Of a DNA stretch of 64,000 bases, positions 30,451 to 49,995 are shown piece after piece. This DNA is from Acidobacteriota bacterium (GTDB lineage Bacteria; Acidobacteriota; UBA6911; RPQK01; JAJDTT01), in the NCBI GenBank assembly GCA_965217775.1, contig CBDCJH010000002.1, positions 64,001 to 128,000 on the forward strand, given 5' to 3'. Numbering within the stretch: position 1 is the stretch's first letter; the number at the start of each line of letters is the position of its first letter. A program made the position numbers and the translations under genes. The notes under the pieces are model-generated. The model ran no database searches, was not told the origin of the DNA, and was given only the letters and a program-made list of their open reading frames with translations.

Positions 30451-30475
30451 ACCCACCAGCAAGAAAGGAGATCAC

Positions 30476-31339: not shown

Positions 31340-31353
31340 TACGAAGGAGAATC

Positions 31354-32109: not shown

Positions 32110-32858
32110 TCGACGGCGTGCGAGTGATCGATTTTCATGGACATGTGGGGGCCAACGACATCATGGGGATGGTGGATGATCCCGACCTGATGCTGCACGC
32201 CATGGATGCCGGCGGCATCGATGTCTCCTGTCTGTTCAACATCTACTATCCGGATGGAACGACGGGCAACGACATGACGGCCCGGTTCGTGGCCCGGCAT
32301 CCCGACCGCTTCGTGGGCTTCGCCTACGTCTGTCCCCTGATGCCGGCCGACAGCATGGTGGCCGAGCTGGAGCGGGCCATCGACACCCTGGGGCTGGTCG
32401 CCATCAAGCTCTATCCCTCCTTCGTCCCCTGGTCCCTGGAACATCCCGTCTGGGACCCCATCTACGAATTCGCCAACGAGCGGGAGTTGGCCCTCATCCA
32501 TCACACCGGAACCGAGTGGCAGGCCTATCCCAAGTTCCTGGCCGACGTGGCGCCCCGTTTCCCCAAGGTCAAATTCGTCTCGGGGCACTCGGGGAACACG
32601 CCGGTGGAACGGGCGCAGGCCATCGCCGCGGCCCAGGCCAACGAGAACGTCTACCTGGAGACCTGCTCCACTTTCCGGACTCCGGGAGTCATCGAGCAAC
32701 TGGTGGAGGAGGGCGGGGCCGACCGGGTGCTCTTCGGCTCGGACACCCCCCTCATGGACCCTCGCCCGCAACTGGGGAAGATCATCACGGCCCAGATCTC
32801 CGACGAGGCCAAACGTCTGGCCCTGGGCGGAAACGCCGCCCGGATCCTGGGGATCTGA
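32106..32858 (+). CDS. Amidohydrolase-2 family protein
   Basis: IDFHGH, IKLYP, IHH, GHSG, LFGSDTP. Confidence 0.9.
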   Translation: MIDGVRVIDFHGHVGANDIMGMVDDPDLMLHAMDAGGIDVSCLFNIYYPDGTTGNDMTARFVARHPDRFVGFAYVCPLMPADSMVAELERAIDTLGLVAIKLYPSFVPWSLEHPVWDPIYEFANERELALIHHTGTEWQAYPKFLADVAPRFPKVKFVSGHSGNTPVERAQAIAAAQANENVYLETCSTFRTPGVIEQLVEEGGADRVLFGSDTPLMDPRPQLGKIITAQISDEAKRLALGGNAARILGI

Positions 32859-32924
32859 GGTCCGTCCGGCCGCAGTCGGCGCGGCCGCAAACTGCTAGGC
32901 CGGGAACCCGTTGGAGACGATGAT

Positions 32925-34208
32925 TTGGAGGAGGACCGCAGATCCTGGGAAATCGGTGCCGGAGACGCCGCGTTGGCGACGCCGGCCATGGACCGGTACA
33001 ACGGCCGGATCCTCATTCTTAAGTCGTTCCTGATCTATTTCGCCGCGCCCGTCGTCTACATCGGCATTGTCCAGGCGGCCCTGTGCGACCGCCTCGGCGC
33101 CGGCGCCACGGTGGCCAACCTGCCCGCCTCCGCCTATCTCCTGGGATCGGTGGCCCCCCTGGTTCTCTCCTGGCTCATTCCCCATCGGTGGACCCGCCCC
33201 ACGCTGGTGGTCGCCTACCTGGTGACCATGTCCGCCTTCCTGATGGTTCTGGCCACGCTGATTCTCCCCGTCTCCAATACGGTGCGGTTGTGGGCCGTGG
33301 TGGGCCAGGGTTTGATTCAGGGCGTTTCGGCATCGGTGGCCCACGTCTACGGTTTCCAATGCCTGAAGCGCGGCACGACCCCCAAGGGCCGGGCCAGGGC
33401 GTTGAAGTGGGCCTACGCGGTGTCGCCGCTGGCTGGTGTGGCGGGCTCCCTCTGGGCTCAGTTCGTCCTGGGAGGAGGCATCGCGGGGCTTGCCTTCCCC
33501 TATGACTTCGGCCTCCTCTACCTGACAGGAGTGCCGTGTATGGTGGCCATCTCTGTCTTGTCCAGTCGCTATCGCCTGCTGGACATCCATGAGGACAAGC
33601 CGCCCAACCTGCTTCCCTACCTCTGGCGGAGTCTCCGTTCCTTCTGGACCCTCCGGATTCTGCTCCTAGTCTGGCTAGCGTATTTCTTCTGGTATCTGAC
33701 CATCAACACCATGCCCAACCTGTCGCTCTACTCCCGGGAGGCATTGGGGCGGGAGCCCCAGGAACTCTCGGGCTGGATGATGGCCCTGCGCTTCGGATTC
33801 AAATGCGTGGGGGGATTCCTGCTGGGGGTGATCGCCATCCGATGGGGCATGCGAGCCCCGCTTTTGACCTGTGCCGGTCTCGTGGCCGCCGCCGTCCTCT
33901 GGGCCTGGTTCATCCCCGGGCACCTGTACCTGCTGGCCTTCGGCATCATGGGAGCCGGAGAGTTGGGAGGCGTCTACTTTCCCAACTACGTCATCAGCGT
34001 CTCTTCGGCCGGCGACTCCACCCGCAATCTGGCCATCCTCTCGCTGGTGACCCCGGTGAGCAGCCTGGGACCGGCGCTGCACGGCGGCCTCGCCGACACG
34101 CTCGGTTTCCCGGCCAGCTTCCTCTTCGGCGTGACGACGGCACTGATATCCTTGACCCTGATCCTGAGGCTCTCGCCCCAATCGTCCCCGGTCCGCCCCG
34201 GACCATGA
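32925..34208 (+). CDS. MFS transporter
   Basis: About 12 hydrophobic segments in a 6+6 arrangement; 427 aa. Confidence 0.8.
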   Translation: MEEDRRSWEIGAGDAALATPAMDRYNGRILILKSFLIYFAAPVVYIGIVQAALCDRLGAGATVANLPASAYLLGSVAPLVLSWLIPHRWTRPTLVVAYLVTMSAFLMVLATLILPVSNTVRLWAVVGQGLIQGVSASVAHVYGFQCLKRGTTPKGRARALKWAYAVSPLAGVAGSLWAQFVLGGGIAGLAFPYDFGLLYLTGVPCMVAISVLSSRYRLLDIHEDKPPNLLPYLWRSLRSFWTLRILLLVWLAYFFWYLTINTMPNLSLYSREALGREPQELSGWMMALRFGFKCVGGFLLGVIAIRWGMRAPLLTCAGLVAAAVLWAWFIPGHLYLLAFGIMGAGELGGVYFPNYVISVSSAGDSTRNLAILSLVTPVSSLGPALHGGLADTLGFPASFLFGVTTALISLTLILRLSPQSSPVRPGP

Positions 34209-34271
34209 GAGTAATGGGTGCCGGGAGTTCCTAATTCCAAAAATCTTGTGCAAATGGACGAAGAATTTTCG

Positions 34272-34289
34272 GTAGGGGCGCCTCTTGTG
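34272..34289 (+). repeat. GTAG-type REP half-site abutting the IS481 left end
   Basis: GTAGGGGCGCCTCTTGTG. Confidence 0.65.
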
Positions 34290-34380
34290 TGTACGGTATC
34301 AGGACATCGTTTACAGTTTGTATCAGGACATCCTTTACACATCAGGGTGAGAAGTAGCCTTCTTTGGGTAGGAGGTGAAG

Positions 34381-35532
34381 ATGCCCTGGAAAGTGACGAA
34401 TGTGATGGATCAGAAGATCCGTTTCGTACTTCGGGCCGTGCAGCCTGGGGCCAACATGAGCGCCCTGTGTCGGGAGTTTCAGATCAGTCGGCCGACAGGT
34501 TACAAGTGGCTGAAGAGGTATCGGGAAGCCCACAGCGTGACCGGACTGGAGGAGCGCTCCCGGCGGCCCCGGCACAGTCCGGCGAGAACGGCGGCGGCGG
34601 TGGAAGCTCGGGTGGTGGAACTGCGGCGGCAATACGGGTGGGGAGGCAAGAAGCTGCAGGTGCTGCTGGAGCGCGAAGGCGTGTCCTTGAGTGTCCCGAC
34701 GGTGAATCGGATTCTGCGGCGGCAGGGCGAGTTGGGGGAATACCAGGCGCAACGGCCGGCACCGCAACGATTCGAACGATCCCAGCCCAACGAGTTGTGG
34801 CAAATGGACTTCAAGGGGCCGTTTCAGGGCCCCGAAGGGCCGTGTCATCCGCTCTCGATCCTGGACGACTGCTCGCGGTATTCGGTGGGGTTGTATGGTT
34901 TGCCGACCACGCAAATGGATCCGGTGCAAACCTGTCTACGAAGGACCTTTGAGGGCTACGGAGTGCCGGAGGCCATGCTGATGGACCATGGGGCCCCTTG
35001 GTGGAGTACCAGCAATGGATGGGGGCTGACGCGATTGAGCGTGGAATTGATCAAGCAAGGGATCGACCTGATCTACGGGCGAGTCCGGCACCCGCAGACG
35101 CAGGGGAAGGTGGAACGATTTCATCGCACTTTGAGCGACTCGGTGGCGCACCGGGGGCGACCGCAACGGTGGCAGGAGTGGGAGCGATTTCTGCAGGACT
35201 TTCGCCAGGAATACAATCAGGTTCGACCCCATGAGTCGCTGCGGATGGAGGTCCCGGCCCAACACTACCGTCGCAGTACGCGTGGCTACGATCGGGACCC
35301 GGCTCCCTGGGAGTATCCCCGGGGGCTGCAGGTGAAACGGCTCAATCGCCGGGGGTGTTTGAGCGCGGGCGGGGACCGTTACTTTGTGTGTGAGTCCTTG
35401 GCGGAGGAGTGGGTGGGCGTGGAAGAGTTGGAAGACAAGCTGCTGGTCCGCTACCGGCACCTGTACATCCGTGAAGTCCACTTGCAGACCCGGCAGACGC
35501 GAGCTCTGGTCTGGCGGGTGGGGCAGGACTGA
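34381..35532 (+). CDS. IS481-family transposase
   Basis: MPWK start with AGGAGG RBS; ISRPTGYKWL HTH; WQMDFKG, LDDCSR, LMDHG and QGKVERFH DDE motifs. Confidence 0.95.
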   Translation: MPWKVTNVMDQKIRFVLRAVQPGANMSALCREFQISRPTGYKWLKRYREAHSVTGLEERSRRPRHSPARTAAAVEARVVELRRQYGWGGKKLQVLLEREGVSLSVPTVNRILRRQGELGEYQAQRPAPQRFERSQPNELWQMDFKGPFQGPEGPCHPLSILDDCSRYSVGLYGLPTTQMDPVQTCLRRTFEGYGVPEAMLMDHGAPWWSTSNGWGLTRLSVELIKQGIDLIYGRVRHPQTQGKVERFHRTLSDSVAHRGRPQRWQEWERFLQDFRQEYNQVRPHESLRMEVPAQHYRRSTRGYDRDPAPWEYPRGLQVKRLNRRGCLSAGGDRYFVCESLAEEWVGVEELEDKLLVRYRHLYIREVHLQTRQTRALVWRVGQD

Positions 35533-35700
35533 AGGGTGTGGGCGGCGCGGGAGGAGGGCACCGAAGTGGCCGTCGAGAACGGTCCCCTTCCGGTTCCTGG
35601 CGAGGCCGTTCGGGGGGGGAGCCACAAGGAGGGGTTCGAGAGATTCGCCGAGGGGCCGGGATGGGGCTGCGGAGCGTCTGGAGGACCCGCAGGAGACGCC

Positions 35701-35817
35701 CGGTTGGGGAGCGACGAGAGGGGGCTGGTGCGAGACGATCGGGGACGGGGGAGGCGCCAGGCCGCGATCGCATGGCCGTGGGGAGTCCGCCGCCGGCCGG
35801 TCGGTCACTGGATCAAG
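35701..35817 (+). pseudogene. Decayed IS21 istA N-terminal fragment
   Basis: QAAIAWPWGVRRRPVGHWIK resembles the IstA HTH (AAIARRLGVSRRTVYHWI); AGGAG upstream. Confidence 0.5.
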
Positions 35818-35941
35818 CCGCCTGGGGGTCACCCGCCCGGTGTGGCCGCAGCGGATTTCCGGTTGCCGTGGGGCCAGCCGTCGGTGCTCATGGAGGTGAT
35901 GGGGGACCTGAATGTCAATGGCCACTGAACATTGCACACAT

Positions 35942-35993
35942 CGCTGGAGACCCCGTGGCGGTCGCGGCCGCGACCGCCACGGGGTCTCCAGCG
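35942..35993. repeat. Perfect 52-bp palindrome (no loop)
   Basis: CGCTGGAGACCCCGTGGCGGTCGCGG|CCGCGACCGCCACGGGGTCTCCAGCG. Confidence 0.95.
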
Positions 35994-36250
35994 GCCGGAT
36001 CTGGTCCCTTCATGCCTCCCTCCTTTCGGCTCCGGATTCCTGTGCGCCGACCGCTCGGGCGGCGGTCGGATGGATCGCCCTGGAGAGCTCGGCGTGGCGG
36101 AGCGGCCGGGGGGCCGGTTCGAACGGGAGCGGGAATGGCGAACTGCTGGGGCATCTTGGCCGGACTCAGGTTCGTTTCACTGCCGGAGCCGAGGGCGTTC
36201 CCGTCACCGGCGACGAAGCGGCCGAGGAGGGTGGACGCGAAACGCCGTCC

Positions 36251-36376
36251 CCGGACTTCGACTTCAGCCTCCAGCGATCGATTCAGCGGGAGCCGATCGA
36301 CTCGCTCGACGAGCTGGGCTTCGTGGAGCGAAGGGAGAACCTCGTCTTGCGGGGTCCGCCCGGGGTGGGCCCAACG
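36251..36376 (+). pseudogene. Decayed IS21 istB fragment
   Basis: DFDFSLQRSIQREPIDSLDELGFVERRENLVLRGPPGVGPT; Walker A lysine replaced by proline. Confidence 0.8.
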
Positions 36377-36457
36377 TCTCGAGCCCTCCGCGGGGCCAAC
36401 GTCCAAGACCCGGATCCGTCCGGCACCCCTGGAGGGGGAGGAGATCGGCACCCTTAG

Positions 36458-36571
36458 GGTCCGCCCGAGCGGCGCGGTTCGGTTGGTCCAACGGGGGAAC
36501 CGGCGTGACGAGCCGACCTCGACGGAGTTGACCTGGAACCCGGCTCTTGAGCCCTGGGGCCAGATCCTGGG
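36458..36571 (+). repeat. 114-bp direct repeat, copy A
   Basis: Near-identical to 37127-37240 (GGTCCGCCCGAGC...CCAGATCCTGGG). Confidence 0.9.
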
Positions 36572-36920
36572 AGAGCAGGTGATGGCGGTGCTGGTGAACC
36601 GGGTTCGGCCCTGCGGCCACAGCGACCGGCGGCGCCGTGCCGCCGAGCTCTCCAAGGGGGCGCCATCCGGGCGCCCTCCGAAGATGGGGTGAAGCTCTCG
36701 CCGTCGGAGCAACCGTGTCCTGAAGGCCGTCCCTTCTCAATGGCCATGGACACGGTCCGCCCAGGGCTGCGGGAGCGGGAAGGAGGGGGGCATGACGGGA
36801 CCCCGGCCGGCTACGGGGTCTCCCGCGATGGATGCCATTTTTGCGGCCGATTGACAGGGCCGGGATTCCGGCCTGTCCCCAGCGTCCGGAACCGTCACGC
36901 CGGCCGTCGGTGCGATTCGG

Positions 36921-36964
36921 AGCGAGCCTGGGGCGCCGGGTGCACCCGGCGCCCCAGGCTCGCT
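36921..36964. repeat. Perfect 44-bp palindrome (no loop)
   Basis: AGCGAGCCTGGGGCGCCGGGTG|CACCCGGCGCCCCAGGCTCGCT. Confidence 0.95.
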
Positions 36965-37126
36965 GTTGCAGACCCCCGCCGGCTCTGTTTTGCATGGACG
37001 TGATCCCGCCCTTGGCTGCAACCGGCAGCCGCCCTGCCTCCCCCTGACCGAAGCGGAATGACCACCGAGACCCACTTGAACCAGATGACCCAACCGTCCA
37101 CCCAAACGCGATCCCTTCAACCTACC

Positions 37127-37240
37127 GGTCCGCCCGAGCGGCGCGGTTCGGTTGGTCCAACGGGGGAACCGGCGTGACGAGCCGACCTCGACGGAGCTGA
37201 CCTGGAACCCGGGTCTTGCGCCCTGGGACCAGATCCTGGG
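37127..37240 (+). repeat. 114-bp direct repeat, copy B
   Basis: Near-identical to 36458-36571. Confidence 0.9.
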
Positions 37241-37511
37241 GGGTGGTGGCGGCCCTTCTGGACCGAGACTTGTCCTGCGGCCACAGCGACCGGCGACGCC
37301 GCCCCGCGGAACGCTCCAGGACGATCCATCCGACGACCGCGCGAGCGGTTCGCCCAGAGGACTCCGGACCGAGAAGGCGGGGCTCCTGCGATGTATGCAG
37401 TTCTCGATGGCCCGAAGTGTGCAATTTTCGATGGTCATTGACACAACGGCCATGGACCAGCTGTAAAGGATGTCCTGATACAACTTGTAAAGGATGTCTT
37501 GATACCAAACA

Positions 37512-37529
37512 CACAAGGGTCGCCCCTAC
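37512..37529 (-). repeat. GTAG-type REP half-site abutting the IS481 right end
   Basis: Reverse complement GTAGGGGCGACCCTTGTG. Confidence 0.65.
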
Positions 37530-37723
37530 GAGAACTTCTCCCATTTTCGGTAAATTCGGCCGATTCCACTTGTCGAATCTTCTGACTCTCCTGCTTTCAA
37601 CCACTTGCGGAGATTTGACCTGATATTTTGGGGGAACTCCTGTCGGGCGGGCCGGTGCTTGAGTGCAGGCTACGGACGGAACTATGCTCTGGTTGATAGG
37701 AAAAAGACCGGAAAGGAGACCTT

Positions 37724-38179
37724 ATGGCGATCTGGCGGAGAGACCGCGACGTGGTCCGGGACGAGGATGAACGTTCGGAGAAAGCCACTCCCACCTCCGA
37801 TGAAGAGTGGAAACAGACCCTAACGGCGGAGCAGTACTACGTCTGCAGGGTGAAGGGGACCGAGCCCCCATTTTCCGGCAAGTACTACGCCAACAAGGCC
37901 GACGGCTCCTATCTTTGCGTGGCCTGCGGGAGCGAGCTCTTCAGCTCGGACACCAAGTTCGATTCGGGGACCGGTTGGCCCAGCTTTTGGGCTCCCGTCG
38001 AGAAAGAGCGGGTCGCCATGGAGACGGACGACAGCTACGGGATGAGGAGAGTCGAGGTGCTGTGCCGCGGTTGTGGGTCTCACCTGGGACACGTCTTCGA
38101 TGACGGCCCCCGTCCCACCGGCCTTCGCTTCTGTATCAATTCGGCGGCCCTGGACTTCAAGGAAAAACCAGGCAAATAA
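37724..38179 (+). CDS. msrB: Peptide-methionine (R)-S-oxide reductase
   Basis: [43 protein letters not shown]; AAGGAG RBS. Confidence 0.95.
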
Positions 38180-38255
38180 CCGGGCCTTCCAGCTTTCCCT
38201 CCCGCGGCGCCGGGTCTTCCCGTGTTTTTTGATCCCGCGACGTTTTATACGAGGG

Positions 38256-38690
38256 ATGCTTCGCACGACACCGGGCGGTGGTTGGGTGCGCGAGGGACGG
38301 GTGTCCCCGATCCTCGCCTGGCTCTGGAATCGACGCTTCAACCCCTCTCATGGCGACCTGGGCCGCTGGGGCGAGTGGATCGCACTGCGGCACCTGCTGG
38401 CCATGGGATGGGACGTGGTGGCCCGGAATTGGAGAGTCCGGCGGGGCGAGGTGGACCTGATCGCCTGGCACGATTCCTGGCTCGTCTTCGTGGAGGTGAA
38501 GACGAGTCTTCTCCCCTCTCCGTTTCTGCCGGAGGAGCGTGTGGACACGGAGAAGCAACGCCGGCTGGAGCGCCTCGCCTACGAGTTCGTCTGGCGCCAC
38601 GAATTGGAGGAATCGCCGGTGCGATTGGACGTTATCGCCGTCGAGACTCGGGACCAGGTTCGTTTCCGGCTCCGGCACTACGTTCTGTAA
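38256..38690 (+). CDS. YraN family (UPF0102) endonuclease-like protein
   Basis: LGRWGE, RNWR..RGEVDLIA, VFVEVKT, RLDVIAV. Start uncertain. Confidence 0.85.
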   Translation: MLRTTPGGGWVREGRVSPILAWLWNRRFNPSHGDLGRWGEWIALRHLLAMGWDVVARNWRVRRGEVDLIAWHDSWLVFVEVKTSLLPSPFLPEERVDTEKQRRLERLAYEFVWRHELEESPVRLDVIAVETRDQVRFRLRHYVL

Positions 38691-38720
38691 GGGGCCCGTC
38701 GTTGAGTCTCCGCTGCCGCG

Positions 38721-38927
38721 ATTCAGGTTCCGCTCGCATCGACGATTCGTGATGCGGACCCCAGCGATTCAGAGGAGCGCTGGTTGACCGTGGGCGAAAC
38801 CCTGTAAGGCCAGTTGTCGGTCGTGTATCAAACTTGGCGAGAGATCGGAAACCGGATAAAAATGAGGATCATTTCAGCGCGATTTGCAACGCTGAACGAA
38901 CGGTGCCTGTACGAGTTGGGAAGATGA
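38721..38927 (+). pseudogene. BrnT-family toxin pseudogene
   Basis: Frame reads PLASTIRDADPSDSEERWLTVGETL*GQLSVVYQTWRE...MRIISARFATLNERCLYE; EERW and RIISAR are BrnT hallmarks. In-frame TAA at 38805; 5' end degraded. Confidence 0.75.
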
Positions 38928-41900
38928 CGCAGGAGTACGATTTTTCTGCCGGCGAGCGTGGTAAGTTCTATCGTCCGAACGCCACGCTGAATCTGCCCCA
39001 ACCCATCCAGAAGTCCGACTGGGCGGATTCCAATAGTCCAATTTGCGCTTTCATTGCGGAGCAGACGAGGAACACTCTCCGGGCATACCGTGAGCAACCG
39101 CATCTCATCACCGAGCATGCCAACCACGAACACGATATCGCTCATGGCGGTTACGCTCATCGACAGCTCTTCGAGCTGGTCCAAAACAGTGCGGATGCGC
39201 TTGCCAACGCACCCTGCGGCAAGAGCATTCTGGTCCGCCTGACGGAAAACTATCTCTACTGCGCCGACGACGGGGACGCGATCAGTCAGGACGGGGTCCG
39301 AGCACTCATGTTCTCCCACATGTCGAGCAAGAGGAACACTAGTGAGATCGGGCGGTTCGGACTCGGCTTCAAATCGGTGCTGGGTGTTACGGATGCCCCC
39401 GAGTTCTACAGTCGCGCCGGCTCCTTTCGGTTTGATCGGGAATATGCGGCCGATTGCATGGCTCCGTTTGCTCCGGAGGGGCGCTTTCCGGTCCTCCGGT
39501 TGCCGGTTCCCATCGAGGTTCGAAAAGCGGCGGAAGGAGACGCTGAACTGGTCGAACTGATGACTTGGGCCACAAACATCGTCCGCCTGCCGCTGAAGCC
39601 GGGTGCAGGGGAGGATCTTGCGCAGCAGGTCCGCGGTTTTCCGCCGGAATTTCTCCTGTTTGTCGACCATGTCCGGTATCTGACCCTTGAAGGCGAGGAA
39701 CGGTCTCGGGATTTCATTCTGGAAAGGTTCAACGGCGAGCTTCGCCTCGATACCAGCGCGGGGTCTTCGCGGTGGAAGTGCTTCCAGATCACACACCAGC
39801 TTTCTGCCGAAGCCCAAGAGGACAGGCGTTCACTCGACGACAGCGGTGACGTGTCCGTCTGGTGGGCGGCGCCGTTGGACCGACTGAACGAACCGGGTTA
39901 TTTCTGGCACTTCTTCCCGACCAAGACGGCAAGTCTTCTGGCCGGGATCCTGAACGCGCCCTGGAAGACCAACGAAGACCGGCAGAACCTGTTGCCGGGT
40001 CCTTACAACGACGAGTTGATCGATGCCGCGGCGAGAATGGTGGCGAGAGGCTTGCCCAATCTGGCCGGCGAGCGGGATCCGGCACGACATCTGGATGCTC
40101 TCCCGCGCCGCTATGAAGCCGGCGACACCGAGCACAGCAACCGCCTTCGCGATCGGTTGTATGAGGAACTGCGCGGCCGGCCCGTGGTCCCCGATCAGGT
40201 CGGAACTCTGCGCAGGATACGGGGCGTTTCCTACGCGCCGTCAGCGCTGACTCAGGATCTGTCGGGGGCGGAATCGCTCCGAGAGTGGGCAGCCGCCAGT
40301 CAGCGTCCAACAGATTGGGTACACCACAGCGCACTCCGTACGAATCGGATCGCCCGGGTCAACCGGCTGTTTTCTCCGGAGCGCCGGAGTTTGACGCAGG
40401 CCCCTCGGTCGTCGATAGGAGAGTGGCTGAACGCCCTGGTCGACGGCTCGGTCGGAGCTGAGGCGATCGAGGCGTCCATGACGGCGCTCCAAGTGGCTGC
40501 GTCGATTCCGCAGGAGCTGAGGCAGGGAGCATACCTTGGCGACATTCTGCCGACGCAGAGCGGGGACTGGTGCTCGCCCGACCCGGATGGCGTGTTCCTG
40601 TCATCGTTCGAAGACGACCCGGATGCTGACGACCTCCTGGTTCATGCGCGGCTCGTGTCTGACGCAGACACTTTGGCCGCTCTGAAGGAACTTGGCCTCA
40701 AGTACGTCTCTGCCGAGAGTCATTTCCAATCCCTGGTCCGGCGGTTGTTCAGGTGGGAACGCGCATCGGTTGTAAATGGGTGGAACGAGTTCTGGGTCAC
40801 TTCGCGTGATGTGGGCACGGAAAGGGCGTACGCGATGATCAAGGCCCGGTGGGATTCGGCATGGCGGATTCAAGTGTGGACGCGGGCTCGCCATTGGCAG
40901 TCCCTGTATTCGGTCCTCCTGCCAGGTGAAATCGTGTCTTCGGCAGGCGCACGCGACAGCGACGTCACGGTCGACACCGACTTCCATCGTGCCGACCTGA
41001 AGTTGCTGGAGAGACTCGGGGTGACGGATGGGCCGAGGCCGAATCGGCAATTGTCGGGCGACCCCGCTTTCGAGTGGTTCTTGTACACCTGTCGCCGGAA
41101 GTTCACGGCTCGGGACCTTCCGAAGAAGCCGCATTGGCGCAGGCTGCAGTTCGACTCGACGGTCGGAAGTGGTCCCATGCAGGTTCTGACCCGGCTTTCC
41201 GATGAAGGCAGAGCACGATATACCGACGCCTTGCTTTCCCTGGAGACCACGTATGGCGGACGGACCCTGCGCCACGAAACTCAGCGCATCTATCCGGAGC
41301 TTCCGTGTCCGAATCCGGCGGTCGCGTTGCTGGCGGAGCATGGCCGTATCCGGTGCGCCGGTGAAATCGTTCCCCTGGCGGATGCGCTCGGTCCTCACCC
41401 CGCCAATCCTGCTGCGCTGAGTGTCCTGCTGTCGCATCCGATGGCGAGCCGAATCAGGAGAGACTTCGATCTTGCCGAGCCCGAGGTGGAACCTGTCGGC
41501 GAGGAGGACGCGGTGCCGCTGACCGACGTGTGGCCCGGTCTGGCGCCGCACCTGAGTGCGCACTCGATGACTTGTTCGCTGATCCGCTGCCTGGAACTGG
41601 TCGCGGACGGCGCCAGCGGTCCCGAATCTGCATTGGTGGACTCCAAAGTCTACCTGGTCAGGACGGATGACGAGGATCGGGAGCTGCGGCTGGTCACGCA
41701 ACGGTTGGGGCTGGATCTGAGTGACACCCAGCTCGAGAACATACGGCGATACGCAGCCCCGGAGGAAGTCGAAAGACAGCACGCGGCGATCCGGCGTCTG
41801 GCATCGGACGCCGAGAGGTTGGCCCAAGCCGTGGGGGCGGATGCCCTTCGTTCCGGTTTGCCCACGTCCCTCCTTCAGGTGCTTGAAGTCGATCGCACAC

Positions 41901-43375
41901 CGCTGACCGGCATGGAGCTGGCGGAAATGGCCATCGCGACGTTTCATACGTCCGCTCTGAAGGCGTACAAGCGGGCTTTGGAACACTTGGACCCGCCGAA
42001 ACGCTGGGCTGGATCACAACGCGCCGTTGACTTCGTCCGATCGCTCGGGTTCTCGGCGGAGTGGGCCGGACAACGGAATTCTCGCCGTCCGCCGTATCTT
42101 GATGTGGAGGGTCCGCACTCACTTCCGGAACTGCATGGTTACCAGCGCACTATCGTGGACCGGGTGCGAGACATGCTCTGCAATGGAGTCGCGGGAAACG
42201 GTGGGCGTCGAGGGATGACCAGTCTGCCTACGGGGTCGGGAAAGACGCGCGTCGCGGTGCAGGCCATTGTCGAAGCCATGCGTGATGGCTTCAATGGCGG
42301 TGTCCTGTGGGTGGCGGACCGCGACGAGCTGTGTGAGCAGGCTGTGGAAGCATGGGGGCAAGTCTGGTCCAGCGTGGGCGCTGAAGGGAAACGCTTGCGC
42401 ATTTCCAGGATGTGGGCTGGCCAGCCGCGGCCGCTGCCGGTCAGCGACCTCCACGTCATTGTCGCGACGATCCAGACGCTCAACGCCAAGTTGTCGAAAC
42501 CGCCCGGTGAATACAGTTTCCTTTCGAATTTCACCCTCGTCGTTTTCGACGAAGCCCACCGATCCATTGCGCCTACCTTCACCTCCGTCATGGAGGAGAT
42601 CGGGCTGACCCGTTGGCAGCGAAGTGAGGAGCCGTTTCTGATTGGCCTTACCGCGACGCCTTACCGGGGGCATGACGAGCGAGAAACGGCAAGGCTGGTG
42701 CGTCGCTACGGTGCCAATCGCCTGGATGCCGGGGCGTTCGCGGGCGATGAACCCGGGGAAGTCGTCCGCGAGCTGCAGGAGATGCGGGTACTGGCGCGCG
42801 CTGACCACAAAATCATCGAAGGCGGCGATTTCTCCTTGAACCGGCAGGAGTTGAAGATATTGCAGGCGATGCCTTATCCCGCCTGGTTGCCCCGTAGCGT
42901 GGAGAATCGCATCGCTCGCGACGTGGATCGAACCAAGCGTATCGTCCACGCGTACGAGAGATTCGTTGGTGATGTCAGCCCGGAGTGGCCCACGCTGGTG
43001 TTCGCCACGTCGGTGGAACACGCTCTGACGGTGGCGGCGCTGTTGAACTCTCAAGGCGTGAGGTCCAGGGCAGTGAGCGCCGCAACGGAGTCCTCCGTCC
43101 GACGAAGGATCGTCGAGGAATACCGGGCGGGAGAGATCCGGGTCTTGGTCAACTATGGCGTCTTCCGCGAAGGATTCGACGCACCCAAGACGCGAGTCAT
43201 CATCGTCGCCCGTCCCGTCTACAGTCCGAACCTCTATTTCCAGATGATCGGGAGAGGTCTGCGAGGACCGAAGAATGGCGGCAACGACCGGTGCCTGATC
43301 GTCAACGTGCGTGACAATATCGAGAATTTCGACCGCGAGCTGGCCTTCTCAGGACTGGACTGGCTTTGGGGATAG
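38924..43375 (+). CDS. BrnA-like N-terminus, sacsin-type GHKL ATPase and SF2 (DEAH/ResIII-like) helicase fusion; putative defence protein
   Basis: MTQEYDFSAGERGKFYRP start; ELVQNSADA, DDG, IGRFGLGFKSV (sacsin/Hsp90-like); LPTGSGKT, DEAH, GLTATP, EGFDAP, QMIGRG helicase motifs. Confidence 0.85.
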   Translation: MTQEYDFSAGERGKFYRPNATLNLPQPIQKSDWADSNSPICAFIAEQTRNTLRAYREQPHLITEHANHEHDIAHGGYAHRQLFELVQNSADALANAPCGKSILVRLTENYLYCADDGDAISQDGVRALMFSHMSSKRNTSEIGRFGLGFKSVLGVTDAPEFYSRAGSFRFDREYAADCMAPFAPEGRFPVLRLPVPIEVRKAAEGDAELVELMTWATNIVRLPLKPGAGEDLAQQVRGFPPEFLLFVDHVRYLTLEGEERSRDFILERFNGELRLDTSAGSSRWKCFQITHQLSAEAQEDRRSLDDSGDVSVWWAAPLDRLNEPGYFWHFFPTKTASLLAGILNAPWKTNEDRQNLLPGPYNDELIDAAARMVARGLPNLAGERDPARHLDALPRRYEAGDTEHSNRLRDRLYEELRGRPVVPDQVGTLRRIRGVSYAPSALTQDLSGAESLREWAAASQRPTDWVHHSALRTNRIARVNRLFSPERRSLTQAPRSSIGEWLNALVDGSVGAEAIEASMTALQVAASIPQELRQGAYLGDILPTQSGDWCSPDPDGVFLSSFEDDPDADDLLVHARLVSDADTLAALKELGLKYVSAESHFQSLVRRLFRWERASVVNGWNEFWVTSRDVGTERAYAMIKARWDSAWRIQVWTRARHWQSLYSVLLPGEIVSSAGARDSDVTVDTDFHRADLKLLERLGVTDGPRPNRQLSGDPAFEWFLYTCRRKFTARDLPKKPHWRRLQFDSTVGSGPMQVLTRLSDEGRARYTDALLSLETTYGGRTLRHETQRIYPELPCPNPAVALLAEHGRIRCAGEIVPLADALGPHPANPAALSVLLSHPMASRIRRDFDLAEPEVEPVGEEDAVPLTDVWPGLAPHLSAHSMTCSLIRCLELVADGASGPESALVDSKVYLVRTDDEDRELRLVTQRLGLDLSDTQLENIRRYAAPEEVERQHAAIRRLASDAERLAQAVGADALRSGLPTSLLQVLEVDRTPLTGMELAEMAIATFHTSALKAYKRALEHLDPPKRWAGSQRAVDFVRSLGFSAEWAGQRNSRRPPYLDVEGPHSLPELHGYQRTIVDRVRDMLCNGVAGNGGRRGMTSLPTGSGKTRVAVQAIVEAMRDGFNGGVLWVADRDELCEQAVEAWGQVWSSVGAEGKRLRISRMWAGQPRPLPVSDLHVIVATIQTLNAKLSKPPGEYSFLSNFTLVVFDEAHRSIAPTFTSVMEEIGLTRWQRSEEPFLIGLTATPYRGHDERETARLVRRYGANRLDAGAFAGDEPGEVVRELQEMRVLARADHKIIEGGDFSLNRQELKILQAMPYPAWLPRSVENRIARDVDRTKRIVHAYERFVGDVSPEWPTLVFATSVEHALTVAALLNSQGVRSRAVSAATESSVRRRIVEEYRAGEIRVLVNYGVFREGFDAPKTRVIIVARPVYSPNLYFQMIGRGLRGPKNGGNDRCLIVNVRDNIENFDRELAFSGLDWLWG

Positions 43376-43452
43376 CCGTGCTGCCACTCAGGGCATGGGG
43401 GCAAGCGGCTACCGGGTCCTCCGAAGATCCGGGGTTTCGGACCGGCGGGAGG

Positions 43453-44790
43453 TCAGAACTTCCGGGTGGCCTTTCGGAAGATCTCCAGACCCTCCTGCAC
43501 GTCCTCTTCCGGCATGTTCAGCGCGGGTCGGAAGCGGATGGACCGCTCGCCGGAGGGCAGGATGAGTAGCCGGTGCCGAAAAAGGCACCGCAGGAACCGG
43601 TCCCGCGTAGGAGTGTCGGGCAGGTCGATGGCGCAAAAGGGGCCTTCGCCCCTGGCGTTGGAGAAGAGGGCAGGTGTCTCCTCGGCCAACTCGTGCAGAC
43701 CTTCCAACAGCACCCGGCCCATCCTGCGGGCGTGCTCCAGGATCCCCTCCTGCTCGTAGATCTCCAGGTAGATCCGGCACCGGACCATGTCGATGAGGCT
43801 TCCGCCCCAGGTCGAATTGATCCGCCCCGGCACCTGGAAGACGTTGTCGGGGACGTCGTCGATGCGGCCGTTGGCCATGATGCCGCAGACCTGGGTCTTC
43901 TTGCCGAAGGCCAGCAGGTCCGGCTCCGCGTAGTGCTCCAGGGCCCACATCTTTCCGGTCCCGCCCAGGCCGGTCTGCACCTCATCGTAGATGAAGAGGA
44001 GGCCGAACTCGTCGCAGATGGACCGGAGAGCTTGGTGGAACTCCCGCCGGAAATGGTTGTCTCCACCCTCCCCCTGGATCGGCTCCAGGATCAGGGAGGC
44101 GACTCGGGCCGAATTTTTCTCAAGCACCTGCCGGATCTGCCGCAGGGCCCGCTCCTCCGATTCCAGCACTGATTTGAGGTTGCCTCCCGTCAGGGGGAAG
44201 CGGCATTTGGGATTCTCGATCCGGGGCCAGTCGAACTTGGGGAAATACCGGGTCTTGTTCCGGTCGAAGGTGTTGGTGAGGGAGAGGGTGTAGCCGAGCC
44301 GTCCGTGGAAGGCCTCCCTGAAATGGATCACCTGGAGGTTCTTTTCTTCCGGGAGACCTTGGGTGCGATTCTTCCGGACCTTCCAGTCGAAAGCCACCTT
44401 GAGGGCGTTCTCCACCGCCGGGGCGCCGCCTTCCACGAAGAAGAGGTGCTTCATGGAATCGGGCAGCGCGAGGCGGCAGAAAGTGTCCACGAAGGCCCCC
44501 ATCTCGGGGGTGTACAGGTCGGAGTTGGACGGCTTGTGGAGGGCCGCCTCTCCCATTTCTTCCACCACTTCCGGGCGCGTCATGCGCGGGTGGTTGTAGC
44601 CGATGGGCGAGGTGGCGTAAAAGGCCATGAAATCGAGAAAAAACCGGTTGGTCTGGAACTCGCAGAGGCGGGACCCGCGGCTCCGGGACAGGTCGGCGAC
44701 GATCTCCACCCCGGAAGCGGGCAGATAGCGGGAGAGTATGCCGGCCGTCTCGCCGGCGTCGAGGTTTACAGTCCGTGGCGAAAGTCTCAT
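43453..44790 (-). CDS. lat: L-lysine 6-transaminase (class III PLP aminotransferase)
   Basis: KPSNSDLY, AVENALKVAFDWK, FHGR.GYTLSLTNT, EPIQGEGGD, DEVQTG, FGKKTQVCG, RINSTWGG. Confidence 0.85.
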   Translation of the reverse strand: MRLSPRTVNLDAGETAGILSRYLPASGVEIVADLSRSRGSRLCEFQTNRFFLDFMAFYATSPIGYNHPRMTRPEVVEEMGEAALHKPSNSDLYTPEMGAFVDTFCRLALPDSMKHLFFVEGGAPAVENALKVAFDWKVRKNRTQGLPEEKNLQVIHFREAFHGRLGYTLSLTNTFDRNKTRYFPKFDWPRIENPKCRFPLTGGNLKSVLESEERALRQIRQVLEKNSARVASLILEPIQGEGGDNHFRREFHQALRSICDEFGLLFIYDEVQTGLGGTGKMWALEHYAEPDLLAFGKKTQVCGIMANGRIDDVPDNVFQVPGRINSTWGGSLIDMVRCRIYLEIYEQEGILEHARRMGRVLLEGLHELAEETPALFSNARGEGPFCAIDLPDTPTRDRFLRCLFRHRLLILPSGERSIRFRPALNMPEEDVQEGLEIFRKATRKF

Positions 44791-44927
44791 GCAGCACCGA
44801 GACCGTTCCTGCGCCCGCCGGACAAGGCGCGATGAGGGAGCATACCGGGAGTATGTGACCGAGTCGCAACGCAGTCCGCCGGGATGCAGGGACGGTCGAA
44901 TGCCATGACGACTTTCACCACGGGCTG
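44769..44927 (+). mobile_element. ~159-bp MITE, copy 1
   Basis: TIRs CAGTCCGTGGCGAAAGTC...GACTTTCACCACGGGCTG; near-identical inverted copy at 48040-48197. Confidence 0.85.
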
Positions 44928-44928
44928 T

Positions 44929-46326
44929 TCAGGTCGCCCGTTTCCACCTTGTTCCCTCTCGGGTGTCCTCCAGGACGATCCCTTTTTCGGACAAGAGGCT
45001 GCGGATCCGGTCGGCCCGGGAGTAATTCCGCGTTTGGCGAGCCTTCGTCCTTTCCTGGATGAGCCGGGCGATCTCGTCGTCCTCCAACTCGAGGGCCTCC
45101 AGTTGGAAGGTCTCGAAGATCCGGTTCACCTTGGAAAAGAAACTCAGGATGGCGTCGCGGTCGGGACCGCCGACCCGTTTTTCCTGCAGGAGCAGGTTGC
45201 CCTTCCGGACCAGATCGAAGATGGAAGCCAGGGCGGCTGACGTATTCAGGTCGTCGTCCAGACTGGACTCGAAGTTGCGGCCGGCGTTGACGGCCGCATC
45301 CGTCAGCTCCCGGTTTTCTTCCCGGTCGTCCGGGACCTCCCGGAGGCGCTGTATGAAGTCGTTGGCCCGCTGCAAGGCCGACTGAGCCTGGGTCATTCCC
45401 TGGAGGCTGAAGTTGAGTTGCTTCCGGTAGTGGACGCTCAACAACAGGTAGCGGACCGCCAGCGGGTCCCAACCCTGCTCCAACAGATCTCGCAGGGTGT
45501 AGAAGTTGCCCCGGGACTTGGACATCTTCTCTCCCTCCACCACCAGATGGGCGCTGTGGACCCAGTGGCGGACGAAGGGTCTGCCGGTGGCGCCCTCGCT
45601 CTGGGCGATCTCGTTCTCGTGGTGGGGAAAGACCAGGTCGACTCCCCCGGCATGCAGGTCGAAGGATTCTCCCAGGTACTCCATGCTCATGGCCGAACAC
45701 TCGATGTGCCAGCCGGGGCGGCCCGGGCCCAGTGCCGTTTCCCAATAGGCTTCATCCGGCTTTCTCGCCTTCCAGAGCACGAAGTCCCGGGGATTGTCCT
45801 TGCTGTATTCGTCGGCGTCGGTGGCATCTCCCCGTTCCGCTTCATTCAGGTCGAGGCGCGAAAGCCTGCCGTAGCCGGGAAGCCGGTCGATACGGTAGTA
45901 GATCGACCCGTCCTGCTCGTAGGTCAGACCCTTCCGGCGCAGCCGCAGGATCAGATCCACCATCTGCGAAATATGTTGGGTCGCCCGGGGCATGATCTCC
46001 GGCCGCTGGAGGCGCAAGGCTTTCATATCGTCCAGAAAGGCCTGGGTGTAACGGCTGGTGTACTCCTGAATGGGTTCGCCCCTGGCCCCGGCGCCGTTGA
46101 TGATCTTGTCGTCCACGTCCGTGATGTTCATGACGTGGGTGAGTCCGAAGCCCTTGTAGAGCAGGTAGCGGCGGAGCAGGTCCTGGAAGGTGAAGGTCCT
46201 GAAGTTCCCGATGTGAACGAAGTCGTAGACCGTGGGTCCGCAAGCGTAGAATCGCAGGTCCCGGCCCTCGATGGGGACGACCTCCTCGGTGGCCCGGGTC
46301 AGCGTGTTGTAGAGACGTAGCGACAT
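44929..46326 (-). CDS. cysS: Cysteine--tRNA ligase
   Basis: CGPTVY, HIGN, DFVLWK, GRPGWHIECSAM, FPHHENE, KMSKS. Confidence 0.97.
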   Translation of the reverse strand: MSLRLYNTLTRATEEVVPIEGRDLRFYACGPTVYDFVHIGNFRTFTFQDLLRRYLLYKGFGLTHVMNITDVDDKIINGAGARGEPIQEYTSRYTQAFLDDMKALRLQRPEIMPRATQHISQMVDLILRLRRKGLTYEQDGSIYYRIDRLPGYGRLSRLDLNEAERGDATDADEYSKDNPRDFVLWKARKPDEAYWETALGPGRPGWHIECSAMSMEYLGESFDLHAGGVDLVFPHHENEIAQSEGATGRPFVRHWVHSAHLVVEGEKMSKSRGNFYTLRDLLEQGWDPLAVRYLLLSVHYRKQLNFSLQGMTQAQSALQRANDFIQRLREVPDDREENRELTDAAVNAGRNFESSLDDDLNTSAALASIFDLVRKGNLLLQEKRVGGPDRDAILSFFSKVNRIFETFQLEALELEDDEIARLIQERTKARQTRNYSRADRIRSLLSEKGIVLEDTREGTRWKRAT

Positions 46327-46378
46327 GGAAAAATTGCAGCGAGATCTTAGTCGAAGACCGGGACTGAGGCAACGAGGC

Positions 46379-48004
46379 TCAGAGTTCGCCCTCCGTTGCC
46401 GGGGAGACGGGTGCTTCCCGGACCAGGGACTCCCGCGGCAGCCGGACCAGGCGCAGATTTCCCTCTTCCAGAAGCGATTGGGATCCCTGAAGGGCCGCCA
46501 GTTCCGTCCATCCCGACTCCTTGGTGAGCAGATAGTAGTGAGGCTGTGGGTTCTGGGACGAATATTCCCGCAAGTGCGCCAGGCTCGGGACCTCCTCCCG
46601 GGTCGCTTGGTAGCCCGTGTAATAGAGCGCGGTGTGATGGAAATAGCGGTAGAGGACCAGCGGCCGGTCCTCGCTGATCAAGGGCTGGGACGCCCTGGCC
46701 AGACCCCGGGCCGAATGGTAGTGCTCCACCACGGGTCCCAGGAACGAGAAGGCGGCCGCCGTCGCCAGCACCATTCCGCCGACCAGCGAGAGGAAGGCCC
46801 GCTCCGGCCGGCCGGAGCGTGATTCGCGAGCTCCCCAGAGGGCGGCCCCGGCCAGAGGCAACGCCACCCAGAGGCCCGAGTCGGAGGAGTAGATAGTCCG
46901 GCTCATATAGACGATGGTTCCCGCCATCAGGAGCGCCATTCCCCGCAGCACCAGCCATTGGATCCGGAGCGATCTTCTCGCCGCCGTCTCACTGGCCAGG
47001 TCCCTGTCCCACTCCAGGGCCACGAGCAGGGCCAGCGCCGGCGCGACCGGCAGGACGTAGCCGGGAAGCTTGCTCTCGCTGAGGGAGAAGAGGAGGACGG
47101 GCAGCGCCGCCCAGATCCAGAGGAAGAATTGGCCGCGGTTCAGGCCGGTCTCGCCCCGCGCGCGCCAGAGGCGGGCGCAGGAACCGGCGAGAAAGGGCGT
47201 CCAGGGGAAGAATCCCACCGCCAGGACCGCCAGGTAGTACCAGAACGGCTGGGAATGGTGGTGGAGATCCGACATGACACGGGCCAGATGGTGATTGAGC
47301 CAGAAGGTCACGAAGAAGGAGTAGCCGTTCTCGACCCAGACGCTCCAGTACCAGGGAATGGACGTCGCCAGGAACGCCGCCGTCCCCGCCAGCAGGTGTC
47401 TCCAGTGCCATTCGAGCTTCTCGATCCAGAGGAAGTAGACCGTGAAGATTCCGCCGAACAGGATCAGGGCTACGGGTCCCTTGGCCAGTGCCGCTGCTCC
47501 CAGGGCGGCGCCAGAGAGCAGTGACCAGACGGGGTTGCGGCTGGTGGTGGCCCGGTAACCGCAGACCAGGGCCACGGTGAGACCGGCGGCAAGGGGCATG
47601 TCGGTGCTTCCCGCCCGGGCGAAGATGAAGAACAGGGTGGAGGTCGACAGGATGAGAATGGACAGGACGCCCGCGCGGAAACCGGCCAAGTGCCGGGCGA
47701 GTCCTCCGACGGCAAGGACGCAGAGAATGCCCAGCAAGGCCACCGGCAGGCGAGCCGCAGTCTCGTTCACTCCGAAGACGCGGAAGCTGAGGGCCTGAAC
47801 CCAGAAGAGAAGCGGCGGCTTCTCCAGCCAGGGGAACCCTTCCAGTCTGGGCGTGACATAGTCGCCGGCCAGGAGCATCTCTTCGGAGATGCGCGCGTAG
47901 CGGGGCTCGTCGGCGCCCATGAAGGGAAGATCGCCTAGTTGGAAGAAAATCGTCAGGTAGACGGCCAGCAGGACGAAGACGATGAGATGGCGTTGGCGTC
48001 CCAC
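46379..48004 (-). CDS. ArnT-family (GT39/GT83) membrane glycosyltransferase
   Basis: DEPRYA, EKPPL, AARLP, LAKGP, PFWYYL, SKLPGY; polytopic membrane protein. Confidence 0.88.
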   Translation of the reverse strand: MGRQRHLIVFVLLAVYLTIFFQLGDLPFMGADEPRYARISEEMLLAGDYVTPRLEGFPWLEKPPLLFWVQALSFRVFGVNETAARLPVALLGILCVLAVGGLARHLAGFRAGVLSILILSTSTLFFIFARAGSTDMPLAAGLTVALVCGYRATTSRNPVWSLLSGAALGAAALAKGPVALILFGGIFTVYFLWIEKLEWHWRHLLAGTAAFLATSIPWYWSVWVENGYSFFVTFWLNHHLARVMSDLHHHSQPFWYYLAVLAVGFFPWTPFLAGSCARLWRARGETGLNRGQFFLWIWAALPVLLFSLSESKLPGYVLPVAPALALLVALEWDRDLASETAARRSLRIQWLVLRGMALLMAGTIVYMSRTIYSSDSGLWVALPLAGAALWGARESRSGRPERAFLSLVGGMVLATAAAFSFLGPVVEHYHSARGLARASQPLISEDRPLVLYRYFHHTALYYTGYQATREEVPSLAHLREYSSQNPQPHYYLLTKESGWTELAALQGSQSLLEEGNLRLVRLPRESLVREAPVSPATEGEL

Positions 48005-48039
48005 GGTGGCATTCTAACCCGCATTGCACACGGGTATAT

Positions 48040-48197
48040 CAGCCCGTGGCAAAAGTCGTCACGGCATTCGACCATCCCTGCATCCCGGCGGACTGCGTTG
48101 CGACTCGGTCACATACTCCCGGGTATGCTCCCTCATCGCGCCTTGTCCGGCGGGCGCAGGAACGGTCTCGGTGCTCGCGGGACTTTCACCACGGGCT
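48040..48197 (-). mobile_element. ~158-bp MITE, copy 2 (inverted)
   Basis: CAGCCCGTGGCAAAAGTC...GACTTTCACCACGGGCTG; matches 44769-44927. Confidence 0.85.
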
Positions 48198-48226
48198 GAT
48201 CCGGCGGCTCGGCGTCGGAACCCGCG

Positions 48227-48261
48227 GAAAAAAGAAAAGGGGTCCGGTCGGACCCCTTTTC
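48227..48261 (-). terminator. Intrinsic terminator of groSL
   Basis: GAAAAGGGGTCCG-GT-CGGACCCCTTTTC hairpin followed by a U-tract on the minus strand. Confidence 0.8.
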
Positions 48262-48290
48262 CGGTTGCCGCAAGCTTGGATTGCAGCGGA

Positions 48291-49940
<1,650 letters not shown>

Positions 49941-49995
49941 CTAAGAATTGTGGGGATCGCTGCTGTTTGCGGTGAATAAGACCGGTTCAGGCAAC

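Follow-up and report, generated by a model that had tools for sequence, protein, structure and literature searches.

In a 64,000-nucleotide stretch of an Acidobacteriota genome (hereafter the window; assembly GCA_965217775.1, contig CBDCJH010000002.1, positions 64,001 to 128,000 of the forward strand), a gene at 38924..43375 on the + strand, stop codon included, encodes a giant protein of 1483 amino acids (aa) that opens with a piece of an antitoxin and continues as an ATPase, a large core and a helicase. We refer to this protein (P0001) as the giant and to its first 25 residues as the head. Comparison with small antitoxins shows the head to be homologous to the N-termini of the partners of BrnT, an RNase toxin of the RelE superfamily. 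In relatives of the giant gene, brnT lies directly upstream and overlaps the giant's start, the ancestral and still the commonest arrangement. Because the two genes overlap in this way, toxin and giant are made together. We hold with moderate confidence that the giant tethers BrnT, through its borrowed antitoxin peptide, as a latent effector, an arrangement that appears to be a novel means of coupling a toxin to a large sensor.

What does the giant consist of? A preliminary description of this DNA had read it as a stop-free frame joining a sacsin-type ATPase to an intact DEAH helicase of superfamily 2 (SF2), and searches of domain libraries bear this out. The head, residues 1-25 (MTQEYDFSAGERGKFYRPNATLNLP; 38924..38998), is the N-terminal peptide of BrnT-partner antitoxins minus their DNA-binding part. 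It is followed by an Hsp90/sacsin-type GHL ATPase with a transducer-like domain (residues ~33-477; 39020..40354), in which NCBIfam P_loop_sacsin matches residues 80-162 at 64.7 bits (cutoff 50) and the PADLOC models of TmtA match residues 42-477 (8e-60). Among the 1538 positions of the best TmtA model only 11-428 align, short of a full-length match. All Bergerat motifs are intact (E84, N88, D115, G117 and GxxGxG at 143-148) and invariant in the family alignment. Pfam identifies the C-terminal helicase (residues ~1066-1483; 42119..43372) through ResIII at 1069-1248 (86.4 bits), DEAD (54.3 bits) and Helicase_C at 1352-1447 (47.2 bits), and its motifs are likewise invariant: G1104, K1107 and T1108 (GSGKT), D1209-E-A-H1212, T1243-A-T, and Q1440..G1443-R-G..R1447 (QxxGRxxR). 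These helicase families stand where a C-terminal PD-(D/E)xK (DUF3883) nuclease was looked for and not found; neither DUF3883 nor Pfam DUF3684 (E ≤ 1) matched anywhere in the giant. An alternative TTG start at 38834 is unsupported, since homologs begin at the methionine three residues ahead of EYDFS.

Between the ATPase and the helicase, the preliminary description had left about 800 residues with no recognisable motif, a gap that is now closed in part. The TmtA models account for the sequence up to residue 477. The remainder, a family-specific core rich in helical repeats (residues ~478-1065; 40355..42118, + strand), is predicted to fold: the AlphaFold2 model of residues 470-1065 (596 residues, searched as a whole) has a mean predicted local distance difference test score (pLDDT) of 86.2, and Foldseek found nothing like it in the PDB at E ≤ 1e-3. 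The ESM Atlas gave no usable match for residues 480-1065. With VIA-align the same model reached a best Z of 5.0 against a helical VHS/CID-like fold (root-mean-square deviation (rmsd) 2.5, 65 aligned residues) and a Z of 4.3 against the zincin-like chain 3e11_B (rmsd 3.3, 67 aligned residues, model residues 399-468), both weak; a possible inactive zincin-like fold would lie near residues 860-946. These matches, short of proof, possibly echo the repeats and the inactive metalloprotease-like fold in the core of the defence ATPase Tiamat. The model of residues 1-480 (mean pLDDT 79.7, predicted template modelling score 0.81) is assigned by Foldseek to the N-terminal and middle domains of Hsp90, TRAP1 and HtpG (best E 3.4e-7, probability 1.00). 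In this model residues 1-27 have a pLDDT of 32-46, no secondary structure and no packing, and order starts near a conserved DWAGP. Conserved as it is and disordered in the model, the head looks like a free peptide.

Directly upstream of the giant lies what is left of its toxin gene. The preliminary description had noted a BrnT-like frame here, with an internal TAA and a TGA overlapping the next ATG, and this proved correct. The remnant occupies 38721..38927 on the + strand and keeps the C-terminal ~55 codons of brnT; the frame 38706-38924 translates as ...DSEERWLTVGETL, a stop, GQLSVVYQTWREIGNRIKMRIISARFATLNERCLYELGR and a second stop. The first stop is the TAA at 38805-38807, and the second is the TGA within ATGA (38924-38927), which overlaps the giant's ATG at 38924. 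With X in place of the TAA, the remnant matches Pfam BrnT_toxin (PF04365) over profile positions 24-77 of 77 (E 1.9e-9, 38.1 bits, cutoff 34.5), and a local BrnT hidden Markov model (HMM) matches it as two pieces. The score places the frame in PF04365, yet a complete, uninterrupted coding sequence is lacking: the start codon and the first ~23 profile positions, the N-terminal third, are gone. Judged by its reading frame, the window brnT is a pseudogene remnant and not a functional BrnT member; the toxin is dead in the window. The remnant is syntenic with the intact brnT of 30 related loci.

These relatives were drawn from species-representative genomes, which yielded 625 confirmed stretches; 66 loci were kept, making 67 with the window. 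Context calls combined stop-to-stop frames, a BrnT HMM built from clear cases (its seed set held one wrong-frame sequence, with no visible effect) and tblastn of the giant. An EYDFS head is present at 44 loci including the window, 43 of them with upstream DNA. At 30 of the 43, a full-length brnT in a single frame lies directly upstream of the giant; it is split over two frames at four (L001, L005, L007, L015), partial at one (L013), reduced to a C-terminal remnant at four (the window, L002, L003, L027) and absent from four (L004, L008, L022, L052). The 30 intact operons come from six phyla: Spirochaetota, Pseudomonadota, Gemmatimonadota, Latescibacterota, Binatota and Acidobacteriota. In 26 of them, as in the window remnant, the last codon of brnT is the TGA contained in the giant's ATGA, so that the two genes are adjacent, co-oriented and coupled through stop and start in the manner of a toxin-antitoxin (TA) pair. 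Pfam recognises BrnT in both upstream frames that were checked (L006, 95.7 bits; L063, 78.6 bits). Other heads are found at 21 loci, and of these L063 alone is preceded by BrnT.

Is there a third partner? The preliminary description had seen no nuclease or methylase nearby. An all-against-all comparison of flanking open reading frames (ORFs) from the 67 loci agrees in that it revealed no conserved third gene, methylase, nuclease or other, and returned only shadow ORFs in the giant, BrnT and PDC-S68; as regards the nuclease the statement needs correction, for that partner is BrnT itself. A gene of ~1250 aa with a full-length match to the PADLOC candidate PDC-S68 (1510 bits in L054) adjoins the giant at six of the 67 loci (L009, L022, L040, L041, L054, L062). 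Two loci show rearranged forms of the operon. In L060 (3928-6398), the gene behind an intact brnT encodes only 723 aa, the EYDFS head joined to the last ~630 residues (late core and helicase); residues ~30-850, some 820 in all, are missing, and there is no ATPase. In L057 (4623-6260), BrnT and giant share one frame (..RRQYETGPMKQEYDFS..), a possible toxin-giant fusion; that giant is broken ~1.3 kb further on, and an assembly error is possible.

Is the head a family feature, or was it captured once by accident, as the preliminary description had considered? Of 8000 candidates scored in a word-indexed search with the giant, 1906 were homologs at E ≤ 1e-3. The best 120 of these are 56-93% identical, almost all 1450-1560 aa long and mostly matched over full length. 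A head of the form M..EYDFS.GERG.F, recognised by the pattern M..EYDFS, opens 106 of them, and P0054, which has R for E, brings the number to 107; N-termini are shorter or of another kind in the remaining 13. With the leader in 107 of 120 best homologs and an intact brnT at 30 of 43 loci, a one-off capture is rejected. In an alignment of 18 heads Y5, F7, R12, G13, F15 and P25 are invariant, at an identity of 32-54% to the reference head over the first 50 residues. The family-library search of residues 1-60 that the preliminary description had proposed gave no match in Pfam or NCBIfam at E ≤ 1, and thus reached no BrnA model (PF14384). The identity of the head was therefore established by genome pattern search and context. 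The giant does not match the BrnA HMM with its ribbon-helix-helix; what it shares with these antitoxins is the N-terminal M..EYDFS.G.RG peptide.

Where else does this peptide occur? Of 401 genomes of the window's phylum, the Acidobacteriota, 54 contain the back-translated EYDFS pattern, at 64 places in all; its reversed control is found nowhere. We fetched 30 of these loci. In all 30 the motif opens a small ORF, which continues for another 33-114 residues (L080, which reads EYDFRRGKRG and lies outside the search pattern, is counted among them), and in 28 a BrnT HMM match lies directly upstream, L082 and L097 being the exceptions. EYDFS.G.RGKFY, proposed earlier as a typical start of BrnT-paired antitoxins, is indeed just that. 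The small proteins fall into three C-terminal classes. That of L088 is a Pfam BrnA (PF14384, 48.8 bits), matched over profile positions 24-67, the part after the motif that has no counterpart in the giant. Another class (L073-76, L078, L082, L083, L101) opens with MKKEYDFSKGERGKFYRPNVKLNLP and continues IYLDP.... The window head is identical to the start of the L078 class at 20 of 25 residues and diverges exactly where the C-terminal domain of that class begins, which argues that the head is the N-terminal peptide of a BrnT-partner antitoxin without its DNA-binding part. Two loci (L093:1489-2158 and L099:1185-2029) carry two tandem small antitoxin ORFs of the EYDFS type after one brnT.

The toxins group in keeping with their partners. 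In a maximum-likelihood tree of 55 BrnT sequences (97 columns; many forks unresolved), the 30 giant-linked BrnTs of the EYDFS loci cluster with seven BrnTs whose small antitoxins share the ..LNLP head of the giants, at a support of 94/89 that lies just below the star threshold, and apart from BrnTs with other antitoxin classes. The BrnT of L063 is placed elsewhere, beside a paralog from the window genome. This genome encodes three further intact BrnTs (C2:345134, 2109641 and 4432888; L067-L069), none with an EYDFS-type ORF behind it, and the two included in the tree (L067, L069) fall outside the giant-linked clade. EYDFS.G.R occurs once in its 6.43 Mb, so the paralogs use other antitoxin heads; the same motif search found no small antitoxin of the canonical EYDFS type in the genome.

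Is the design confined to BrnT? Upstream of the giant at two Dehalococcoidia loci, L043 and L059, lies a gene for a RelE/ParE toxin of family TIGR02683 (126.3 and 128.6 bits, cutoff 62.85). Each of these giants opens with the N-terminal half of the matching antidote, TIGR02684/PF21716 (HI1420), of whose 89 profile positions it retains 3-54. These heads score 26.6 and 27.5 bits in Pfam (cutoff 27) and 33.1 and 40.2 bits in NCBIfam, the latter under the full-length cutoff, as half a domain would be expected to be. The profile matches thus show a second, independent toxin/head pairing, of a RelE/ParE toxin with an HI1420 head. A remnant of a TIGR02683-type toxin is kept at L049, and L063 combines its BrnT with a different, acidic head. 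A third type of head makes up the first ~70 residues of the giants P0101 and P0122 and corresponds to a family of stand-alone 76-aa proteins (..DESxEDYLYP..). The gene of the 76-aa protein often stands a few bases behind a conserved 77-aa ORF (..RWRKLKG..HWYEAHGIG..), as at 39 of 58 loci from metagenomes and 7 of 22 from Gemmatimonadota (L104-L164). Neither ORF has a Pfam family, and the pair resembles an undescribed toxin-antitoxin-like pair; among 168 genomes, no long open frame fusing the P0101-type head to a giant was found. In other Dehalococcoidia and Chloroflexota homologs, K/R-rich N-terminal tails of 20-50 residues (e.g. MAKKKRLNRKKNKRK..) replace the antitoxin head, and the toxin gene upstream is absent (L033, L034, L038, L041, L042, L054, L055, L056, L066).

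What happens to the giant when its toxin decays? The window and L001-L004 are syntenic upstream (yraN in L001-L004, msrB as well in L002 and L003) and form a series: brnT is nearly complete and frame-split in L001, 5'-deleted and interrupted by a stop in the window, reduced to its C-terminal half in L002 and L003, and gone from L004. L004, the closest relative wholly without brnT, carries an ORF for a HicB-like antitoxin (4586-4843; Pfam, 47.1 bits) between yraN and the giant. All five loci keep an intact giant, with pairwise ratios of nonsynonymous to synonymous substitutions (dN/dS) of 0.19-0.31. By these substitution rates, purifying selection is shown to act still on the window giant, an intact orphan since its toxin decayed. 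The head evolves faster: leaving aside the near-identical pair L002-L003, dN is 0.12-0.35 for codons 1-32 and 0.04-0.11 for the whole gene, a difference of ~3-fold, and the invariant R12 is lost in L002 and L003. Toxin-decayed loci have a median head-HMM score of 55.5 bits, against 61.6 bits elsewhere, a comparison biased by training of the HMM on the intact set and by decayed loci that partly belong to one clade; the window head itself scores 55.5 bits. Constraint on the head seems to be linked to the presence of the toxin.

Does the head bind BrnT? For BrnT of L026 and head residues 1-50, complex prediction from an 18-row alignment per partner gave scores of 0.34, 0.35 and 0.32 (median 0.34), and the best of three controls 0.02. 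Contacts agreed between runs at ≥80%, and partner pLDDT was ≥51. The mark for this score is reached by 116 of 157 solved complexes and by 2 of 215 mismatches, and scores of 0.60 or less belong to 18 of those 157 and to both mismatches. Sequence searches of the PDB returned one BrnT-family chain, alone (7vd7_A, E 1.2e-23), and neither a relative of the small antitoxin nor a solved BrnT-antitoxin complex; recall by the predictor is therefore unlikely.

The giant belongs to a much larger family. A profile of its core region collects 749 clusters (50% identity) at E ≤ 1e-3, 643 at 1e-10 and 379 at 1e-30. N-termini were inspected for members of at least 1300 aa among the best 150 clusters and for 16 of at least 1200 aa with the ATPase anchor motif, two sets that overlap. 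An EYDFS head was seen in P0123 alone. Most N-termini extend only a few residues beyond the conserved N-flank, and some proteins have K/R-rich tails or different N-terminal domains. By its domain order the giant is a member of a widespread Tiamat-like subfamily, a likeness that the preliminary description overlooked, as it did the toxin-independent working of the core.

In PrrC with EcoprrI, PARIS AriA-AriB and Hachiman HamA-HamB, a nuclease toxin is silenced through physical contact with a large infection-sensing NTPase or translocase and is freed or activated upon sensing. The concept of a latent toxin is common to these systems and to the tethering that we propose; the protein families are unrelated. 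We know of no case among the three in which the toxin is tethered by its own type II antitoxin peptide fused to the N-terminus of the sensor. The BrnT/BrnA type II TA system (PF04365/PF14384) is like the giant operon in its toxin-first order, its overlapping stop and start, its BrnT toxin and the first ~25 residues of the partner. It is unlike it in that ~1450 residues of ATPase, core and helicase replace the ribbon-helix-helix domain, and in that the window toxin is a pseudogene.

How does the giant compare with Tiamat itself? As set out in the accessible text of a recent preprint (10.64898/2026.09.30.754977), Tiamat combines an ATPase with a DNase, Tiamat-like Type III-A has a UvrB-like SF2 helicase in the nuclease's place, a RelE-like nuclease fused to a helicase occurs next to Type I-K Tiamat, and N-terminal extensions of prokaryotic Tiamat are treated as short and uncharacterised. 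The giant resembles Tiamat and Type III-A in its N-terminal Hsp90/sacsin-type GHL ATPase with a transducer-like region and intact ATP-binding motifs, and in a large non-catalytic core, although the metalloprotease-like fold is only weakly matched and DUF3684 is not. With Type III-A it also shares a C-terminal SF2 helicase where Tiamat has a PD-(D/E)xK nuclease. Unlike Tiamat, it is matched by the TmtA models only as far as residue 477 and has neither DUF3684 nor DUF3883. Its antitoxin-derived N-terminus finds no mention in the accessible text of the preprint, where "BrnT" does not occur and "antitoxin" occurs once, in the context of PIN (10.64898/2026.09.30.754977). BrnT-like genes directly upstream of RtcR-associated CoCoNuT systems are mentioned in the portion of a further study available to us (eLife 2024, PMC11090510). 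Like the RelE-helicase of Type I-K, these are RelE-superfamily RNases that repeatedly adjoin or are fused to large helicase-containing defence systems, and they set a precedent for the proposed tethering; unlike the giant operon, neither is described, in those portions of the sources, with an antitoxin-derived head, and the large partners differ. A survey of RelE/ParE-superfamily toxins that includes BrnT-BrnA fusions does not contain the word helicase in its accessible text (mBio 2025, PMC11980606). Full-text literature searches found no earlier description of an antitoxin-headed ATPase-helicase.

How might such an operon work? In the tethered-effector reading, the flexible head would bind and silence BrnT, making the giant an antitoxin of 165 kDa with its RNase effector on board. 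More speculatively, the ATPase/helicase would meet a trigger, probably foreign nucleic acid, and a rearrangement at the N-terminus of the ATPase would free or unmask BrnT, which would then shut down translation and abort the infection. In the window genome the toxin has been lost through a 5' deletion and the TAA, leaving the giant as an orphan. The tripartite design of the preliminary description, in which the antitoxin peptide keeps BrnT bound to the ATPase/helicase, retains its genomic premise, given the intact operons, the second toxin/head pair and the BrnT tree, with weak support from the predicted BrnT-head complex. The free-peptide look of the head, the pair kept in the L060 deletion variant and the apparent link between toxin and head constraint favour tethering too. 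A more general version is tentative and, to our minds, rather doubtful: type II antitoxin peptides grafted onto the flexible stretch ahead of the GHL ATPase would act as plug-in adaptors for interchangeable RelE-superfamily RNases, and an ATP-driven N-terminal rearrangement of the GHL dimer, once the helicase has sensed foreign nucleic acid, would release the toxin. BrnT with EYDFS, BrnT with the second head, the HI1419 RelE/ParE toxin with the HI1420 head and possibly the 77-aa/76-aa pair would be its cases.

Several observations weigh against a tethered effector. By the predictor's own standard, head-BrnT binding has weak support. The 30 intact operons are mutually related at 53-65% identity and so are not 30 independent events. 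Training the BrnT and head HMMs on these same loci introduces some circularity, though Pfam confirmed the examples tested. Many records are long-read metagenome-assembled genomes, so that the split brnT genes and the in-frame fusion of L057 may be assembly errors. Little around the giant points to defence: its neighbours in the window (msrB, yraN, an aminotransferase and cysS) are housekeeping genes, and the PADLOC check, which did yield the TmtA match within the giant, gave few matches among 97 flanking ORFs (98 proteins with an added L054 neighbour) and no evidence of defence activity. Since nearly all inspected members of the wider family are short-headed, the antitoxin head is a trait derived in one subfamily, with a core that works without a toxin; purifying selection on the giant after toxin loss likewise indicates a toxin-independent role for the ATPase-helicase core. 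Finally, a protein of 165 kDa would be an expensive labile partner for a classical addiction module.

Could the pair be about addiction only? On this account, our main rival explanation, the head binds BrnT and the pair merely stabilises the giant gene, or the element that bears it, after horizontal transfer, with BrnT no immune effector and no signal-driven release. The occurrence of subfamily members with 53-65% identity in six or more phyla implies that transfer has been frequent; toxins decay repeatedly once vertically inherited (the window, L001-L005, L007, L013, L015, L027), the giant persists without them, and most family members have no toxin head. Addiction needs an antitoxin less stable than its toxin, however, which is costly at 1483 aa, and at least two recruitments of unrelated RelE-superfamily toxins with their cognate peptides fit an effector role equally well. 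On 72,556 plasmids, moreover, no full-length relative was found: 15 records matched and none reached 80% query coverage. We regard addiction alone as unlikely, even if the data do not separate it from a tethered effector.

Two further explanations deny the head a role towards the adjacent toxin. It might be a functionless relic, antitoxin codons kept by a helicase gene in the brnA slot only for ribosome-binding context and a coupled start. The lack of a Pfam or NCBIfam match of its own, the disorder in the model and the nearly universal ATGA coupling would suit a relic. We consider it the least probable of the explanations, highly improbable indeed, in view of six positions that stay invariant in 18 operons despite the low identity of their heads, of a head kept in nearly nine of ten best homologs, of the same design used again with another toxin family, of the survival of the L060 head through an 820-residue deletion and of the rise in head dN where the toxin is lost. 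The alternative that the head acts independently of an adjacent BrnT, by neutralising the three BrnT paralogs of the window genome or as a degradation or localisation signal, seems scarcely more plausible to us. It draws on the existence of these paralogs, on the single EYDFS.G.R of the genome, which puts them on other heads, and on the well-preserved window head; at odds with it are the position of L067 and L069 outside the giant-linked BrnT clade, the tie between motif and adjacent BrnT in the small-antitoxin loci and, by the biased HMM, the lower scores of toxin-less heads.

The left border of the module is yraN/UPF0102 (38073..38690, + strand; Pfam UPF0102, 74.6 bits), which lies outside it. 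No sigma-70-like sites were found in 38000-39300, no Rfam families in the window and no tRNA genes in 30000-50000. Directly upstream of msrB lies a repeat cluster (35913-37443) with two direct copies of ~200 nt (36449-36654 and 37118-37318; 93% and 77% identity in two blocks) and inverted arms (36018-36109 versus 37290-37381, 35913-35959 versus 36810-36856). The cluster has no Rfam family, and no convincing gene runs over the repeats.

What would a tethered RNase mean for the family? Without the nuclease of Tiamat, helicase-type Tiamat-like proteins have no obvious way to harm phage or cell; if our tethered-effector reading is right, the tethered RNase would supply that effector. The ~25-residue N-terminus of BrnA type would then be a portable toxin-binding module, separable from DNA binding, and a minimal neutralising element would be defined for a poorly studied TA family. 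Should the adaptor principle hold as well, it would constitute a new class of TA/defence hybrid. The scaffold has gained at least two unrelated toxin/peptide pairs and lost them again, and its intact, frameshifted, remnant and absent toxin genes offer a natural series in which to study how TA modules are recruited into defence genes and discarded from them.

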